From positions 160,001-224,000 of the forward strand of contig CAXXGJ010000006.1 in assembly GCA_963677895.2 (NCBI GenBank): a DNA stretch of 64,000 nt. Direction: 5' to 3'. Positions 7,301-13,700 of the stretch are shown piece after piece. A program made the position numbers and the translations under genes. Each line of letters starts with the position of its first letter. Position 1 is the first letter of the stretch. The notes below the pieces were generated by a model that was not told the origin of the DNA, ran no database searches, and saw only the letters and a program-made list of their open reading frames with translations. This DNA comes from Treponemataceae bacterium. GTDB lineage: Bacteria; Spirochaetota; Spirochaetia; Treponematales; Rectinemataceae.

Positions 7301-7615
7301 GTGAAGGTTGAGTTTAAAAATTCTCAACTCGAAAAACTCTATTCAACCGGACAATCGAAGAAGTACCCAGTAGGCTCGGCTATCGCGACAAAATTCGTGG
7401 CCGTCGTAGCCAGATTGAAAGCCGCTCAAGACATCCACGATCTTTGGAGACTGCCTTCGCTAAACTTCGAACGACTTCATGGTAACCCGAACAGGTATTC
7501 GGCGAGAGTAACGATCAAGTACCGAGTCGAGATGGAAATAGACTGGGAAAACCAGGAGAAAACCATTGGACTTATCGGTATCGTCGAGCTCTCGAGCCAT
7601 TATGGAGGAAGGTGA
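7301..7615 (+). CDS. higB: HigB-like (RelE/ParE fold) toxin
   Basis: 104 aa with LEKLY, LPSLNFERLHG, YSARVTIKYRV; toxin-first order; GTGA overlap with the antitoxin. Confidence 0.8.
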   Translation: MKVEFKNSQLEKLYSTGQSKKYPVGSAIATKFVAVVARLKAAQDIHDLWRLPSLNFERLHGNPNRYSARVTIKYRVEMEIDWENQEKTIGLIGIVELSSHYGGR

Positions 7616-8721
7616 CTATGGGCGAACTCAAGCCATTCATCAATATCGGACCCGGCATCGTTATAAAGGATGAACTGGAAGCGCTAGGTTGGTCGCAGGA
7701 TGATCTGGCACGCATCATGGGCATGTCACTGAAAGCCGTCAATGAAATCCTTAACGACAAGGTGGCGATAACAGTCGAAACAGCGCGGCTTCTGGGAAAA
7801 GCATTCGGGACATCGGCGGAAATATGGATAAACCTGGATACGGCATATCGACTTCGCCTCCGAGAAGATACCGAGCGCGAACGGGAAGCCGAACGTTATG
7901 CGGCAGTCATGAAGTACATGCCGGTCAGGGAGATGGTCAAGAAAGGATGGCTAGAAACCTACAACTCGTCATCGGAGCTTTTGGAAAAAGCCAAGAATTT
8001 CTGGAATGTTTCCGAGCCTGATTTCTCATTCTTGGGCAAGGCTAAGGAGCCCTGTTTCAGGCGTTCCGACGCTTATGAATTCTACGAGAAATATTACGCC
8101 CTCACCTGGACCCAAAAAGCAAAGGATACTGCTTCAAGTATACATTTGCCGGAATGGGACAGAACCGCGGCCAAAAAGATTGGAGCAAAGCTCGGCAATT
8201 TCTCTCGGCTCGAGAATGGCACCTCGACATTTATACAGGACTTAGAAGTGGCAGGCATAGGGTTTTTCGTACTGAGCCACCTGCAGAAAACGTATCTGGA
8301 CGGAGCGGCGATTTTCGTCGGCGCGAATCCATTCATCGTCTATACTGGCCGCTTCGATCGTTGTGACAATTTCTGGTTTACCGTAGCCCACGAGTTAGCC
8401 CACCTAGTTCTTGGTCACGTGAAGAAGGACGGACAGGAAATCCTTGATGACCTGAAACAGGAAGCCGGAAACGATCAGGAAAAAGCAGCAGATAAACTGG
8501 CTGAAACCTATCTCCACACTGTGGAAATTCTGGAATTTTGCGCGCCTTTTAAAAAGTATCTCTCGCGCGAGAGGATAGAGCGCTGCGCTGAAACAGTCGG
8601 AGTAAGCCCGGGTATTGTGGTTGGAACCTTACAGTATGCGGGTATCCTGCCGTACAAGAACCTAAATAACTATAAAAGACCAATACTCACGGCACTTCCT
8701 GCATCATGCATCAAGGGATAA
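7612..8721 (+). CDS. higA: HigA-like XRE HTH antitoxin fused to an ImmA/IrrE-type HEXXH metallopeptidase
   Basis: N-terminal PG..IKDELEALGWSQDDLA...W.NL...Y; C-terminal DNFWFTVAHELAHL and E..AD. Confidence 0.8.
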   Translation: MTMGELKPFINIGPGIVIKDELEALGWSQDDLARIMGMSLKAVNEILNDKVAITVETARLLGKAFGTSAEIWINLDTAYRLRLREDTEREREAERYAAVMKYMPVREMVKKGWLETYNSSSELLEKAKNFWNVSEPDFSFLGKAKEPCFRRSDAYEFYEKYYALTWTQKAKDTASSIHLPEWDRTAAKKIGAKLGNFSRLENGTSTFIQDLEVAGIGFFVLSHLQKTYLDGAAIFVGANPFIVYTGRFDRCDNFWFTVAHELAHLVLGHVKKDGQEILDDLKQEAGNDQEKAADKLAETYLHTVEILEFCAPFKKYLSRERIERCAETVGVSPGIVVGTLQYAGILPYKNLNNYKRPILTALPASCIKG

Positions 8722-8723
8722 AC

Positions 8724-9554
8724 CTAGACATCATCAAAAAGCTCTTTTTGGTATTCATATGGTATCGGTAATACACCAACAATAACCCAAGGGTTAGGAG
8801 CTAAAAAATGAAACTGTTGAGTCGTGCCAAGATAAAAATGGAGATCTTTCTGTACAAATGTGTCGAAGTATTTTGCCCGAACTTTTTCCAAGACTTGTCG
8901 ATCATCTATCCCTGGTTCCTTGAAACAATTCCAATACAACGCCCCAATTTCCCAATCGAGTATTTGAAGCTGACAACTACGCCCTCGATCATCTTCAAAT
9001 CTGTAAGAAAAGCTATATGGCAACTTTTTTATTAGCTTGAAGGTTCTTCGCCATTCATTATCGTCAAATAAATCAAGCTGATTATAAAAACCCCTCATTT
9101 CAGCAACTTTAGATTCATCCCACTCTCGTTCTTCACTTTCTGAGATAAAATCTATAACTCTCGTAGGTTTGAATATCGCCAACGAAGTTATGTTCCGCTT
9201 TGCATCAATGATAAGAGCATCCATATTTGTATATACTTTTGCAGTTTTTAAGAGAATTTCTCGGCGTGCATGCCAATTATTCTCAGTACCAATTCTACCT
9301 ACCGGTTTTAATTCTTCAGGATTTATCGGACTATATGATTCTGGTCTTGGATCTTTGGTTCTCCGGTTTGTCTGGCATTCAATCCAATCATATTTGCTAT
9401 ATTGTTCAGCTTCATCCAGCCTTCGAAACGGCACTGGGTATAACCTTACCCAAGAGCCATCCTCCCTGATACCAGCCGTGCATACGGTTTCGCCATACTT
9501 CATCGATAATGTCGGATACGTTTTAACGGTGATTAGGATACGTTCCTTTGACAT
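8724..9554 (-). CDS. Conserved hypothetical protein, partner of DUF488 (possible dual-OB nucleic-acid-binding protein)
   Basis: 276 aa, N-terminal ITVKTYP.LS.KYGETVCTAG...G.WVRLYP; starts 12 nt after the DUF488 stop. Confidence 0.6.
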   Translation of the reverse strand: MSKERILITVKTYPTLSMKYGETVCTAGIREDGSWVRLYPVPFRRLDEAEQYSKYDWIECQTNRRTKDPRPESYSPINPEELKPVGRIGTENNWHARREILLKTAKVYTNMDALIIDAKRNITSLAIFKPTRVIDFISESEEREWDESKVAEMRGFYNQLDLFDDNEWRRTFKLIKKLPYSFSYRFEDDRGRSCQLQILDWEIGALYWNCFKEPGIDDRQVLEKVRAKYFDTFVQKDLHFYLGTTQQFHFLAPNPWVIVGVLPIPYEYQKELFDDV

Positions 9555-9566
9555 ACACCAGCTCCG

Positions 9567-10463
9567 TTACAAATTTATTATTTTTATTTTCTCCTCATGC
9601 GTACTTTCAATTGCTTCAGCCACACAGTGCCTATGGCATTGTTCGGGCAAGTGTTCATAGCACGTCAAGGCAACACTCTCTCCCTCCCTAATCCATATAC
9701 GAATCAATTCTAGTGATTCGCTTTTATTTGGAAGAATATTTTTTTTATATTCTTCGAAAAGATGATCATACTCTGCTTGTGTATCAAGATTTTTTCGTTG
9801 ATCGGACGCAATTCCCAAATCAGGCAAATGCTCATACCTGATTCCAACTCCTGCACAAGCCTTAAGCAAGGTATTCTTAGAAAATCCATATTTCCGGCTT
9901 ATTGGATTGCGACGTACATCACAAAGTAGGCTTACGCCACTTCGAATTAAAATATTCAGATACGCTTCCAGGGACAATCCTTCATACCCAATCGTCAGTA
10001 AGCCAGGACACTTTCTTGGTTTCGCTTCTTCGATTCGCTTCAATGCCTTGATATCTGAATGAAGGACCCTCTCCGCTATTTCACTTTTAATCCCGTAGTA
10101 TGGATATTTTCGATACGTTTCTGCAACTAATTCATCACCTCTCAAGCTTGAGTATTTTTGCATAAAACTGCTGATTTTTGTTTTGATATCGGGAGATACC
10201 ATTGTCGATGCCTCAAATCCCGATTGCGTCAATCGCCAATAATGTTCGTCAGGTGACAGCATTCCAGATTCGACCAAATGTCTGCGATCGGCATAGGATG
10301 TGAAGGAAAAGGCACCATACCGATATGGAATAAACTCGTAAAATGCGTTGACATCACACTCCTGGCAACTGAGAAAAAGTAGTTTCTGGAAGTCAAGATT
10401 TCCGACAGGACCATTAGCTGATGCCAACAGTGCCAGCAAGTATTTTTGTCGATGAAATATCAT
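9567..10463 (-). CDS. DUF488-domain protein with an N-terminal winged-helix-like domain
   Basis: TIGYEG, LCDVRRNPISRKYGFSK, YEHLPDLG, LTCYEHLPEQCHRH; N-terminal FQKLLFL...YEFIPYRYGAFS. Confidence 0.8.
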   Translation of the reverse strand: MIFHRQKYLLALLASANGPVGNLDFQKLLFLSCQECDVNAFYEFIPYRYGAFSFTSYADRRHLVESGMLSPDEHYWRLTQSGFEASTMVSPDIKTKISSFMQKYSSLRGDELVAETYRKYPYYGIKSEIAERVLHSDIKALKRIEEAKPRKCPGLLTIGYEGLSLEAYLNILIRSGVSLLCDVRRNPISRKYGFSKNTLLKACAGVGIRYEHLPDLGIASDQRKNLDTQAEYDHLFEEYKKNILPNKSESLELIRIWIREGESVALTCYEHLPEQCHRHCVAEAIESTHEEKIKIINL

Positions 10464-10511
10464 AGTGTCCTATTTACATTATACGAGAATATTTCAGCTT
10501 TACAAGTTCTC

Positions 10512-10604
10512 TTACTTCAACGCCGTATAGATTTCTTAAAGACTCTCGATACTAACTTCCAGTTTTTCGATGATCTCACCAGCGAGAATGTCAGGGTAAA
10601 GTAA
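10512..10604 (-). pseudogene. 3' remnant resembling the C-terminus of type I R-M methyltransferase HsdM
   Basis: Reads LLYPDILAGEIIEKLEVSIESL*EIYTALK*; internal stop at 10536-10538 and no upstream gene body. Confidence 0.55.
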
Positions 10605-10655
10605 AGGGTCACCATCTCTGGGAGCTCGGCATAAAGCATGGCAGAAGCGCGCAAC

Positions 10656-10676
10656 GGGTTGAAGCGGTTGTTCGTA
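10656..10676 (-). mobile_element. Truncated attC site (R''-L'' half only)
   Basis: Plus strand GGTTGAAGC-GGTT-GTTCG matches GGTTGAAGC-ATTT-GTTAG of the intact attC. It lies 15 nt after the DUF1801 stop; the complementary arm is absent. Confidence 0.6.
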
Positions 10677-10691
10677 AAATATTATTTCTTT

Positions 10692-11075
10692 CTATATTCG
10701 TCTCAATTCTCCATTATTGATTCTTATGTTTTTGTAATCCCATTGTATGCTTAGTGCTTCATCAAGCCACTTATTAAGTTCGTTTTCGTTTGTTTCTTCA
10801 ATTTTTGTATATACCCTTTCCGCAGCTTTGAATTTCCCGATTGGACTTAGCCCCTTGTTGCTGAAGGATTGTCCACTCCAAAAAAGTAGTGCAATTCCAT
10901 TTTTCTTTTTTGAATATCCGACTATCGGATTTTCGTCTATAAACCATACAGGAGCACCATGGTACATTTTTGATGTAGCGTTCTTCAGTTTTAGATTAAT
11001 CAAACCGCAGAGTTTTATGCAAATGTCTTTCAGGGTGCCTTCAAATTGATTGTTGTATTCTTCAAATTGATCCAT
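10692..11075 (-). CDS. DUF1801 (YdhG-like) protein, probable cassette gene
   Basis: Start MDQFEE at 11075 with GGAGGA RBS; K.YHGAPVWFIDENPIVGY..K...LLFWSGQSF. Confidence 0.8.
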   Translation of the reverse strand: MDQFEEYNNQFEGTLKDICIKLCGLINLKLKNATSKMYHGAPVWFIDENPIVGYSKKKNGIALLFWSGQSFSNKGLSPIGKFKAAERVYTKIEETNENELNKWLDEALSIQWDYKNIRINNGELRRI

Positions 11076-11275
11076 AATCCTCCGATATCTTGCTTGATCG
11101 AAGCAACATCTTTTATATGCTGGACGTATTTGCGCGCGTAGCATCAGGCTAATAAGTATGATGTCCTTCTTCGTAAAATACTTTTGAATAATCTATTTTC
11201 CATTAATATATTGTAGTTAAAACAAATATAACTCTTTTATACAACATAGCTATTTCAGCTCCATATAGTTGATCC

Positions 11276-11400
11276 GACTAACATAAGCTTAACCTTTAAA
11301 GCCTGGCCCGAGCTACTGCGAGGGATTGGCGTGGTTTGTGCATGTGATTTCTGCACAAACCATGCCAAAAGGCTTTATAAGGTTGAAGCATTTGTTAGGA
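11276..11400 (-). mobile_element. Integron attC recombination site (125 bp)
   Basis: R'' TCCTAAC (11400-11394) and R' GTTAGTC (11282-11276). Bottom-strand hairpin with unpaired spacer ATAA/ATTT and extrahelical G11385 and T11378. Inner 17-bp stem 11326-11342/11352-11368. Begins 7 nt after the RT stop. Confidence 0.9.
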
Positions 11401-11407
11401 TTCTTTT

Positions 11408-12730
11408 TTAAGACATTGCACTCATATCTTGTTCAATATCAAGAATACTCTTGTGTATTAATTTTTTAAATTTGTATTGCGCGTCATCTATATTTTTAAA
11501 CTGAATACCGATATAACTTAGTAGTTTTATTATCATATCGTCAGAATATTCATCATAATTGGGTATATATTTTGATTTTATGCCTTTTTTAGTTATTTCT
11601 TTATATACTCTAGATATCTTTTTAATTTTAAGCTCTTCACATTTATACCTTTTCATCTGTCTATTTATAAAGTGATCTATTGAAAATAATTCTTGAATAT
11701 TTTCTGTTTGTGAAAAAAAGAACATCCATCCATACTTTTTGTTTTCCCAAATAAATCCGGTAATTCTCAAGTTTACTCTAAACTCTAGTTTTTTTGGATT
11801 TTTTTTTGCCTGATGCTTATATATTGTTAGAAGACGTATAATAGATTCTTTGAATTTCCTTTTGCTCTTTAATCGAATTGATACTTTTCTATTTGAAAAA
11901 CAATATCCAAGGTAATCAAACTTATCATGAATTGGTGCAACCTTATACTTATCCCCATCATTAAAGACTAACTTGTATTTTTCAATTTCTTTGAATAATT
12001 TATTTTCTAAATACTTCCTATTATCAAAATTACATAAAATTAAAATATCATCAACGTACCTATAGTACTTAATATTTCTTATCTTTGAGATCTCTTTATC
12101 AAATGGAGTTAGATATACATTTGCAAGAATATTTGCTATAGATAAACCTTGCGGAACTCCTTTATCCCTGACAAAAATATCATCAGCTTTGTAAGCAGAA
12201 TTTGTATTTTTAATAGACGCCATAAGCAATTTTATAACTTCAACTTTTCTAATTTTTGTTTTAACTTGTTTTAATAGTATCTCGTGATCTATGCTTGGGT
12301 AATAATTTTTAACATCTAGCTTAATAAAGCAATTATACTGTAAGTCTTTAATACTTTTTGATATATCTGCAATTTGAGTATGCAGCCTTCTTTTTACTAA
12401 TTGTTCGGTAAATGCACTTTCAAGTATTTCGAATAATGCTCTTAAGACTAATCGATCTCTCAAAGTTGGCTTTTCAACAATTCTTGGACAACTATTGTAG
12501 CCTTTTGAAAGTAATTTTGCTTTATAGACAGTAAAACTATACGTTCCTGCCTTACACTTAGTAATAATTAACTCTGTGTGCAATGCAAAATCACGTCGAA
12601 ACTGATGGCTTGTCATTCCATCAATTCCTGAAGTTGCATTTAATCCAATTTTATCATCAAATATTGATAATAAAGCTTTATTTGTAAATATTTTATTAAA
12701 TTTTTCTGCAGAATTTAACTTAATAGCCAT
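11408..12730 (-). CDS. Reverse transcriptase, UG17/DRT10-like defence-associated type
   Basis: GIDG, SKG...PRIVEKPTLRDR, FIKLDVKNYYPSIDH, GVPQGLSIANILANVYL, YYRYVDDILI, FDYLGY, C-terminal YGWMFFFSQ. Likely start MAIKL at 12730, overlapping the SLATT stop (ORF track extends to 12814). Confidence 0.88.
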   Translation of the reverse strand: MAIKLNSAEKFNKIFTNKALLSIFDDKIGLNATSGIDGMTSHQFRRDFALHTELIITKCKAGTYSFTVYKAKLLSKGYNSCPRIVEKPTLRDRLVLRALFEILESAFTEQLVKRRLHTQIADISKSIKDLQYNCFIKLDVKNYYPSIDHEILLKQVKTKIRKVEVIKLLMASIKNTNSAYKADDIFVRDKGVPQGLSIANILANVYLTPFDKEISKIRNIKYYRYVDDILILCNFDNRKYLENKLFKEIEKYKLVFNDGDKYKVAPIHDKFDYLGYCFSNRKVSIRLKSKRKFKESIIRLLTIYKHQAKKNPKKLEFRVNLRITGFIWENKKYGWMFFFSQTENIQELFSIDHFINRQMKRYKCEELKIKKISRVYKEITKKGIKSKYIPNYDEYSDDMIIKLLSYIGIQFKNIDDAQYKFKKLIHKSILDIEQDMSAMS

Positions 12731-13290
12731 ATAAATATTCCTATCGGGATAACTAAGTAAATCAGAATTATTATTAGCCAAACTACTATATTTCGTATAA
12801 TAAAATAGCTCCATTCAAAAAATGATGGATTTGGAACAGTATTATTCTCAGAAGGATTTGTGGTTTTTCTAAGAAAACACTGAATAATTACTTTTTTATA
12901 ATCATATTCTGAGTGATTTTCAGTTTCCCTAAGCAATTGATCATATTGATCTTCAATATTCGCTGTACTATCATTTCTGTTTTCTGCAGAATAAGCATCA
13001 CTTATTAGTTTCCCGATACTAATATATTGTTCTTTTACTTGTCGGCATTCTTGTTTAAAATCTTTCTGCGATAGTAAAAGCGATACAACTAATACAATAA
13101 TCGAACCGAGCACTGAAAAGGTGTTTCTAATAGAGGAATCAACATTAGAAGGTATGATAGATACAGCAATAAGTAAAATTGAATACCACGGAATCAAGTA
13201 AGTACAGATTTTATAATTGAAATTCAATCTTTTTTCCATATTAATACGTACTTTTCTTGTAATCCACATTCTATCACTTAGCTTATTCAT
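12715..13290 (-). CDS. SLATT-domain transmembrane effector
   Basis: N-terminal W.TRKVRINMEKRL helix, two adjacent TM helices, Y..LL..TENHSEYDY, further C-terminal TM; GGAG RBS. Confidence 0.8.
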   Translation of the reverse strand: MNKLSDRMWITRKVRINMEKRLNFNYKICTYLIPWYSILLIAVSIIPSNVDSSIRNTFSVLGSIIVLVVSLLLSQKDFKQECRQVKEQYISIGKLISDAYSAENRNDSTANIEDQYDQLLRETENHSEYDYKKVIIQCFLRKTTNPSENNTVPNPSFFEWSYFIIRNIVVWLIIILIYLVIPIGIFIWLLS

Positions 13291-13299
13291 AACTACTCC

Positions 13300-13432
13300 A
13301 AAAAAAAGGGGGAATTCTTATAGGAACACCTTAACAACGCTTCTTGCAAAGCTTATCTCTCGATAAAAGCATTACTGCTTTTTTGAATAGAACACCTACA
13401 ATGTAAGCTGTGTAAACACAAAGAATCCCCCC
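13300..13432 (-). ncRNA. Putative RT template ncRNA
   Basis: 12-bp closing stem GGGGGGAUUCUU/AAGAAUUCCCCC followed by U8. Three abutting 5-bp GNRA hairpins (13380-13339), a UGUG-UUUA-CACA hairpin and two AGGUGUUC repeats. Confidence 0.78.
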
Positions 13433-13446
13433 AATAATCACAAAGT

Positions 13447-13468
13447 AATCCTAACAATTATTATACCG
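13447..13468 (-). mobile_element. Cassette 5' recombination point (G/TTAGGATT), attI-like, with adjacent TATAAT
   Basis: GTTAGGATT (13455-13447) is the exact 9-bp complement of the R'' end at 11394-11402; TATAAT at 13465-13460. Confidence 0.65.
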
Positions 13469-13700
13469 TTTATCATAAACTACTATTTAGGTAATCTATT
13501 CGCCAGTAACATATGACACCATCATTAGATGTTATATCTCTTTGAGTGATTCCGCAACATTTTTCGTGATTCTTATAATCCTACGTAAGTAATGAAGAGT
13601 AATGCAACTAACGCGATGGGCGCCTTACCATGCATTAACAAAGCCAAGGGTCAATTTACAGCAACTGCCCGCAATCGACAAACTCTTGATATCGTTTTTG

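Follow-up and report, generated by a model that had tools for sequence, protein, structure and literature searches.

Three elements follow one another on the minus strand within the 64,000-nucleotide stretch of DNA analysed here (the window): a folded RNA, a gene for a SLATT_5 protein, and a gene for a UG17 reverse transcriptase (RT) (Table 1). Both open reading frames are intact and overlap by 16 nt, the closing stem of the RNA ends 17 nt upstream of the SLATT start, and the G+C content of the unit is 25-31%, whereas the host genes on either side have about 50-60%.

Table 1. Coordinates of the RNA, the two genes, and the cassette ends within the window, in the order in which they are read.
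Feature	Position	Strand	Basis or remark
Cassette start, GTTAGGAT, fully complementary to R''	13448..13455	-	sequence
DRT10 ncRNA, six stem-loops, pseudo-symmetric, 125 nt	13308..13432	-	putative ends, from the closing stem
SL1 5' arm of 12 bp with one G-U; partner 13319-13308	13421..13432	-	pair probabilities 0.63-1.0
SL2, 4 bp, UUUA loop	13409..13420	-	fold
SL3, 6 bp, 2 G-U	13394..13408	-	fold; equivalent helix 100% paired in 9 model homologues
Anchor G and loop A (12 nt); predicted short abortive product	13381..13393	-	fold, parse
SL4, SL5, SL6, abutting 5-bp GNRA hairpins; 5' template boundary predicted at SL6	13339..13380	-	fold
Loop B	13320..13338	-	G 13338, UU linker 13337-36, A=GUU 13335-33, B=AAGGU 13332-28, A'=GUU 13327-25, 3' linker 13324-20
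SL1 3' arm	13308..13319	-	sequence
U8, possible 3' end signal	13307-13300	-	sequence; function putative
GGAG, precedes SLATT start	13299-13296	-	sequence; function putative
SLATT_5 two-TM effector, 191 aa	12715..13290	-	Pfam PF18160 110 bits, cut-off 29.5
UG17/DRT10 reverse transcriptase, 440 aa, YVDD, C-terminal Ser	11408..12730	-	start chosen to match P0001
attC: R'' ATCCTAAC (11401-11394), R' GTTAGTC (11282-11276)	11273..11405	-	attC profile 119 bits

The two proteins place the unit in a published family. The PADLOC profile RT_UG17 matches the RT over the whole profile (E 4e-131, 436 bits), the next UG family reaching 1e-33, and the SLATT protein also scores above the cut-off of NF033631 and matches PADLOC RTasSLATT at 9.6e-43. 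UG17 has been named DRT10 (e.g., PMC12632851). The RT carries YVDD at 225-228 and a primer candidate, S440. Residues N197, R371, K385, Y388, and S456, reported as needed in Eco3 (PMC12632851), map by eye, based on the Eco3 row in the supplement of that paper and an alignment of 154 RTs, to N200, R361, R374, Y376, and S440, the K385 position thus being an arginine in the window RT. In a tree of these 154 sequences, the window RT is nested among UG17 RTs in a clade of 27 (support 0.98) that stands apart from the Eco1-like and Eco3-like loci, at 2.7-2.9 substitutions per site from these nearest tested homologues. No UG17 orthologue was found in 60 related genomes searched (best score, 67 bits), and no DRT10 chain was among the 15 matches of a PDB sequence search.

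An assignment to DRT9, DRT3, or the retrons was considered and rejected: with PADLOC profiles, the same RT scores 115 bits with Drt3a and 64 bits with Drt9, the NCBIfam Drt3a and Drt2 models stay below cut-off, and the RNA has no match in Rfam up to E 1. DRT9 (UG28) and DRT3 (UG3/UG8) share with the present system a Class 2 RT, a structured ncRNA, sometimes a SLATT gene, and iterative repeat synthesis, but the window cassette has no poly-U or ACAC template and no second RT.

The RNA had been described in an earlier note as a closing stem around UGUG-UUUA-CACA and three abutting 14-nt GNRA hairpins (13380-13367, 13366-13353, and 13352-13339), and every one of these elements is present at its coordinates. 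What that description overlooked is a sixth stem, SL3 (GCUUAC-AUU-GUAGGU, with pair probabilities of about 0.4), and two single-stranded loops, so that the RNA parses as SL1-SL2-SL3, a G, the 12-nt loop A, SL4-SL5-SL6, a second G, and loop B. RNA folding, which the same note had called for, gives -40.1 kcal/mol for the minus strand of 13308-13432 (z -4.46), and none of 200 shuffles is as stable. The strand preference by energy alone is only moderate, because the plus-strand RNA of the same region reaches z -3.81 and the DNA fold z -2.97. Among 82 segments of 125 nt from both strands of the AT-rich island (8700-13700), attC alone scored as low as the RNA. The claim that the G-U pairs fit just the RT-coding strand is borne out: with SL3 included, there are four such pairs, and all become A-C on the plus strand. 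Within the ensemble, pairing is most secure in the closing stem and SL4 (probabilities of 0.6-1.0), followed by SL2 (0.6-0.7) and SL6 (about 0.45); SL5 reaches just 0.05-0.13 and is missing from the minimum free energy (MFE) structure, above which the six-stem structure lies by 0.5 kcal/mol. The resulting pseudo-symmetric fold of five to six stems with loops A and B, a computational one in which SL5 is weak and the layout is imposed by the parser, fits the layout of DRT10.

Comparison with homologous loci strengthens the case for structure at the RNA level. Two scans yielded 160 related loci, namely 148 with SLATT before the RT, 7 with the reverse order, and 5 without a detected SLATT; scanning genome contigs with a single protein gave no loci, and an alignment-based scan did find them. 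A six-stem parser, which imposes the layout that it reports, fits 89 of 129 candidate upstream RNAs, the window RNA included, and fails on 40. The covariance-model check named in the earlier note was run with a model built from 9 UG17 loci of a neighbouring clade, with the window and its closest relative left out. On the 64-kb window, this independent model has a sole match, at 13309-13431 on the minus strand, full length, with 31.1 bits and E 2.6e-5. In the 9-row alignment, 19 of 36 pairs are changed on both sides, versus 7.7 for shuffles and no more than 8 for slid controls, a count that leans towards structure because the structure was read off the same alignment. In a search of 100 of the 160 loci, the model returns 19 plus-strand matches, 9 of them its training rows, and 7 weaker echoes on the reverse strand. 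A structured RNA of ~120-150 nt thus lies directly upstream of SLATT and is homologous to those of other UG17 loci; the earlier proposal of selection on an RNA tied to a SLATT-RT locus is supported by this shared, covarying fold and by the identity of the RT as UG17/DRT10.

The closest locus for which DNA is available, L097, encodes an RT that is 66% identical, and its RNA scores 40.6 bits with the covariance model. The L097 RNA parses into the same six stems and retains the GNRA loops and the two GUU motifs. Relative to the window, two double and three single changes keep pairs and three outer SL1 pairs are lost; the double changes, each altering both sides of a pair, fall in SL1 together with one of the single changes, and the other two single changes fall in SL6. 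Three hairpin loops differ (GUAA to GAAA, GAGA to GAAA, and UUUA to GUGA, the last in SL2, from window to L097), and in the template loop, B carries a single change and the 3' linker three, with A, A', and loop A identical. The two-sequence consensus fold omits SL5, and the MFE structure of L097 by itself is a different fold from the six-stem model. GNRA caps account for 3 of 5 loops in the window RNA and 4 of 5 in L097 but for only 70 of 445 hairpin loops in the 89 parsed RNAs; GNRA richness therefore marks this lineage and not the DRT10 ncRNA family. Two other loci deserve a remark: at L081, a model match (2322-2465) lies between SLATT and the RT, not upstream of SLATT, possibly a third arrangement of the DRT10 ncRNA as judged from its position, and a complete SLATT-RT DRT10 locus with ncRNA (L060 and L134) occurs on a contig titled as Bathyarchaeia archaeon.

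The RNA had been put forward as unannotated, and it is indeed absent from Rfam; the novelty that this implied does not hold, as the family has been published as the DRT10 ncRNA (PMC12632851; 10.64898/2026.06.29.735271; 10.64898/2026.04.29.721553; 10.64898/2026.10.08.757509). According to these four papers, the RNA lies upstream of SLATT, is closed by a stem, and comprises two halves with five or six stems in all, a loop A of 12 nt, and a loop B that holds the template; each RNA is bound by two RTs, and an A-B-A' pattern two bases past the boundary stem guides protein-primed production of tandem-repeat DNA. The window system shares with the six-stem, Eco1-type form the order ncRNA-SLATT_5-RT with overlapping open reading frames, the closing stem, the succession SL1-3, loop A, SL4-6, and loop B, a 12-nt loop A, a size of 125 nt, a loop B that opens with G-U-U followed by A-B-A', and a C-terminal Ser in the RT. 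It differs in the very short stems of its RNA under GNRA caps, in the A-G instead of G-G predicted at the bases of SL3 and SL6, in its carriage as an integron cassette, and in its predicted repeat unit, ACCTTAAC. The part of the supplement of PMC12632851 that was searched holds no motifs of the window RNA and its 27-sequence clade.

How is the unit carried? In an intact integron cassette, R'' is expected to be complementary to the cassette's own start, and this is the relation found between the two ends listed in Table 1. They bound a cassette of 2,173 bp (13454-11282), with a putative crossover between 13455 and 13454. The attC forms a long imperfect hairpin on the bottom strand and was scored with a profile built from 45 array copies of the same repeat, which recurs 50 times head to tail on a 46-kb contig of the assembly (C39) that has no integrase. 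Stand-alone or small-cluster copies occur on C2, C4, C5, C13, C18, C28, and C30, besides the contig of the window. Three relatives (G001, G019, and G047) have the same repeat arrayed beside a TIGR02249 integron integrase above cut-off, and an IntI profile search of the present assembly (G000, 93% complete) returned none above cut-off. Contigs from three other runs cease matching at 13456-13457, and many short contigs pile up at 11280-11400. The 64-kb window contains no further attC, the cassette flanks are unique in the genome, and no empty insertion site was found in 40 related genomes; the window copy sits by itself outside its array, probably at a secondary site. In L097, by comparison, the same ATCCTAAC/GTTAGGAT motifs occur with attC on both sides, inside an array.

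Cassette-borne loci number 1 of 160 by the attC family profile and 2 of 120 (L097 and L032) by a crude generic test, the latter a lower bound because scanning for generic attC sites failed to detect the true one of the window; most of the DRT10 loci seen are therefore not evidently cassettes. The second locus that passes the generic test lies at about 1700-3990 of L032. Integron-borne anti-phage cassettes have been described, with defence genes between attC sites and expression governed by array position (Darracq 2025 and Kieffer 2025, as reported in part of the review PMC13434031). The window cassette likewise packs defence genes at an attC, but it holds an ncRNA plus two genes, and of the 49 spacings along the C39 array, 47 are shorter than its 2.2 kb. 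Titles and abstract openings gave no report of DRT10/UG17 as an integron cassette, which supplements may list, and the word "integron" is absent from the main text, in the parts consulted, of the four DRT10 papers and of PMC9226505.

In total, the observations outlined so far, together with the template pattern discussed below, make us highly confident that the folded RNA is both template and scaffold for a DRT10 anti-phage system that takes the form of an integron gene cassette. The family identity, gene order, fold, homology, template pattern, key residues, and cassette ends that form the basis of this conclusion were all computed here.

If the RNA belongs to DRT10, is the window copy active? 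The leader from the crossover to SL1 is 22 nt in both the window copy and L097, too short for a whole sigma-70 promoter, and nothing convincing stands at the usual place, where no minus-strand promoter is listed. The best -10-like hexamer just upstream matches at 3 of 6 positions, versus at least 4 of 6 in 48 of 87 other loci, and the cassette stands alone, outside an array, in an assembly without an IntI above cut-off. It could be argued on these grounds that a genuine DRT10 RNA is present here in a copy that is silent or barely expressed, a reading that is compatible with the family assignment and disputes only activity. We consider this unlikely, though it is the most serious of the alternatives, given that a perfect TATAAT occurs just outside the cassette (13465-13460), that 23 of the 87 other loci likewise have only 3 of 6 at -10, and that other runs contain near-identical, intact copies of the open reading frames and the RNA.

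Returning to the RNA as a DRT10 template, loop B reads G, UU, GUU-AAGGU-GUU, CCUAU, which is an A-B-A' pattern two nucleotides past the boundary stem. By analogy with the published systems, this geometry predicts protein-primed single-stranded DNA of the form (ACCTTAAC)n, with an 8-nt unit, and the period is unchanged if the loop B boundary is shifted (starts 2 and 3). The template loops of Eco1 and Eco3 also begin with G-U-U, with the template starting at the next base (PMC12632851), and loop A is 12 nt in Eco3 (10.64898/2026.06.29.735271). By itself the pattern is weak, because 14% of loop B shuffles yield an A-B-A' at this start (31% at starts 2-4). Across homologues, it is found in 31 of 39 well-registered loop B strings, versus 12.2 expected, the count being made on those of 81 distinct strings that start with G and have 17-24 nt. 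The genome contains no two tandem copies of the predicted unit. We also observed that AGGUGUUC occurs twice on the minus strand, at the SL3/loop A junction (13401-13389) and in loop B (13332-13320), which would allow pairing between the predicted cDNA and the arm of SL3; the likeness of the two stretches is not significant, as 8.75% of shuffles score as high.

Based on what is known of distant homologues, from which transcription, the complex of two RTs with one RNA, the priming step, the identity of the repeat unit, activation of SLATT, and defence would all be carried over to this locus, we posit the following mechanism. A single RNA would be bound by two RT molecules, one on each half. The RT at loop B would prime on its own C-terminal serine, S440, and copy GUUAAGGU as far as a boundary that lies two nucleotides 3' of SL6, whereupon the new cDNA end (...AAC) could re-anneal to the second GUU; repeated cycles of this kind would generate long single-stranded (ACCTTAAC)n DNA. 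The RT at loop A, in this model, would make a short product only, and the repeat DNA would, upon infection, activate SLATT, the membrane effector. The arrangement would work much like telomerase RNA, with a template and an alignment segment beside a boundary stem, but the window system is predicted to be protein primed, is bacterial, would have an immune role, and is not a member of that class.

Could both RTs make repeats, or could loop B be read in another register? Loop A contains a 3-nt direct repeat, UUC-UA-UUC, with a period of 5, which is identical in L097 and might specify a second, 5-nt repeat, and engineered RNAs with two competent loops do yield two products (10.64898/2026.06.29.735271). 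At the published boundary (the third base after the anchor G), however, the homology in loop A is 1 nt, and a contig from run X9 alters the second C of the loop A repeat (13385; one contig, depth 6), which together make a second repeat from loop A unlikely; on loop B, starts 2 and 3 keep the 8-nt period. We therefore regard another register or a second template as improbable. That the element is instead a cis-acting leader or terminator for SLATT-RT, or a set of cassette-linked DNA palindromes, and not an RT template, as the U8 directly after the closing stem, 17 nt before the SLATT start, and the good folding of the plus strand might suggest, is very hard to credit in view of the six-stem layout and template loop conserved in UG17 loci that are not cassettes, the excess of A-B-A' patterns among homologous loop B sequences, the G-U pairs that fit one strand only, and the homologous RNAs that are experimentally RT-bound templates (PMC12632851).

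With the RNA taken as a DRT10 template on a cassette, what might such carriage mean? The DRT10 system and its RNA family are already known, as is the integron carriage of defence systems, and the surprise is limited because the core biology of DRT10 has been published. What the locus adds is a DRT10 RNA that is compact and capped by GNRA loops, comes from a clade apart from the tested homologues, and is carried as a cassette. In cassette form, an immune system of three parts, RNA and protein, is able to travel through integron recombination. In the studied systems, repeat-DNA synthesis is constitutive and potentially toxic, which makes cassette position a candidate control. Thus, as a tentative idea that may well prove wrong, we speculate that in this DRT10 lineage, which has become an integron cassette, the template RNA lacks its own promoter and position would switch repeat-DNA synthesis on and off. 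If so, the system would be quiet deep in an array and active at the front of one or, as here, when inserted at a secondary site just behind a host -10 box. The cassette form also offers a simple route to asking how a system that makes DNA constitutively stays quiet. The predicted 8-nt units (ACCTTAAC here and ACCTCAAC in L097) likewise put the published rule for the template boundary to the test in a distant homologue.

The surroundings of the cassette hold further genes of possible interest. Directly after the attC lies a DUF1801-like gene (10692-11144, minus strand), behind which no attC of this family follows. A two-gene candidate defence system, PDC-M19 (8724-10463, minus strand; component A, a DUF488 protein, E 3e-104; component B, E 6.5e-110), adjoins the DRT10 cassette within a shared low-G+C island. 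On the plus strand, at 7301-8721, a HigB-like toxin is encoded together with an HTH/IrrE-type peptidase protein (PD-Lambda-2_B profile, E 1e-45), a candidate toxin-antitoxin or defence pair.
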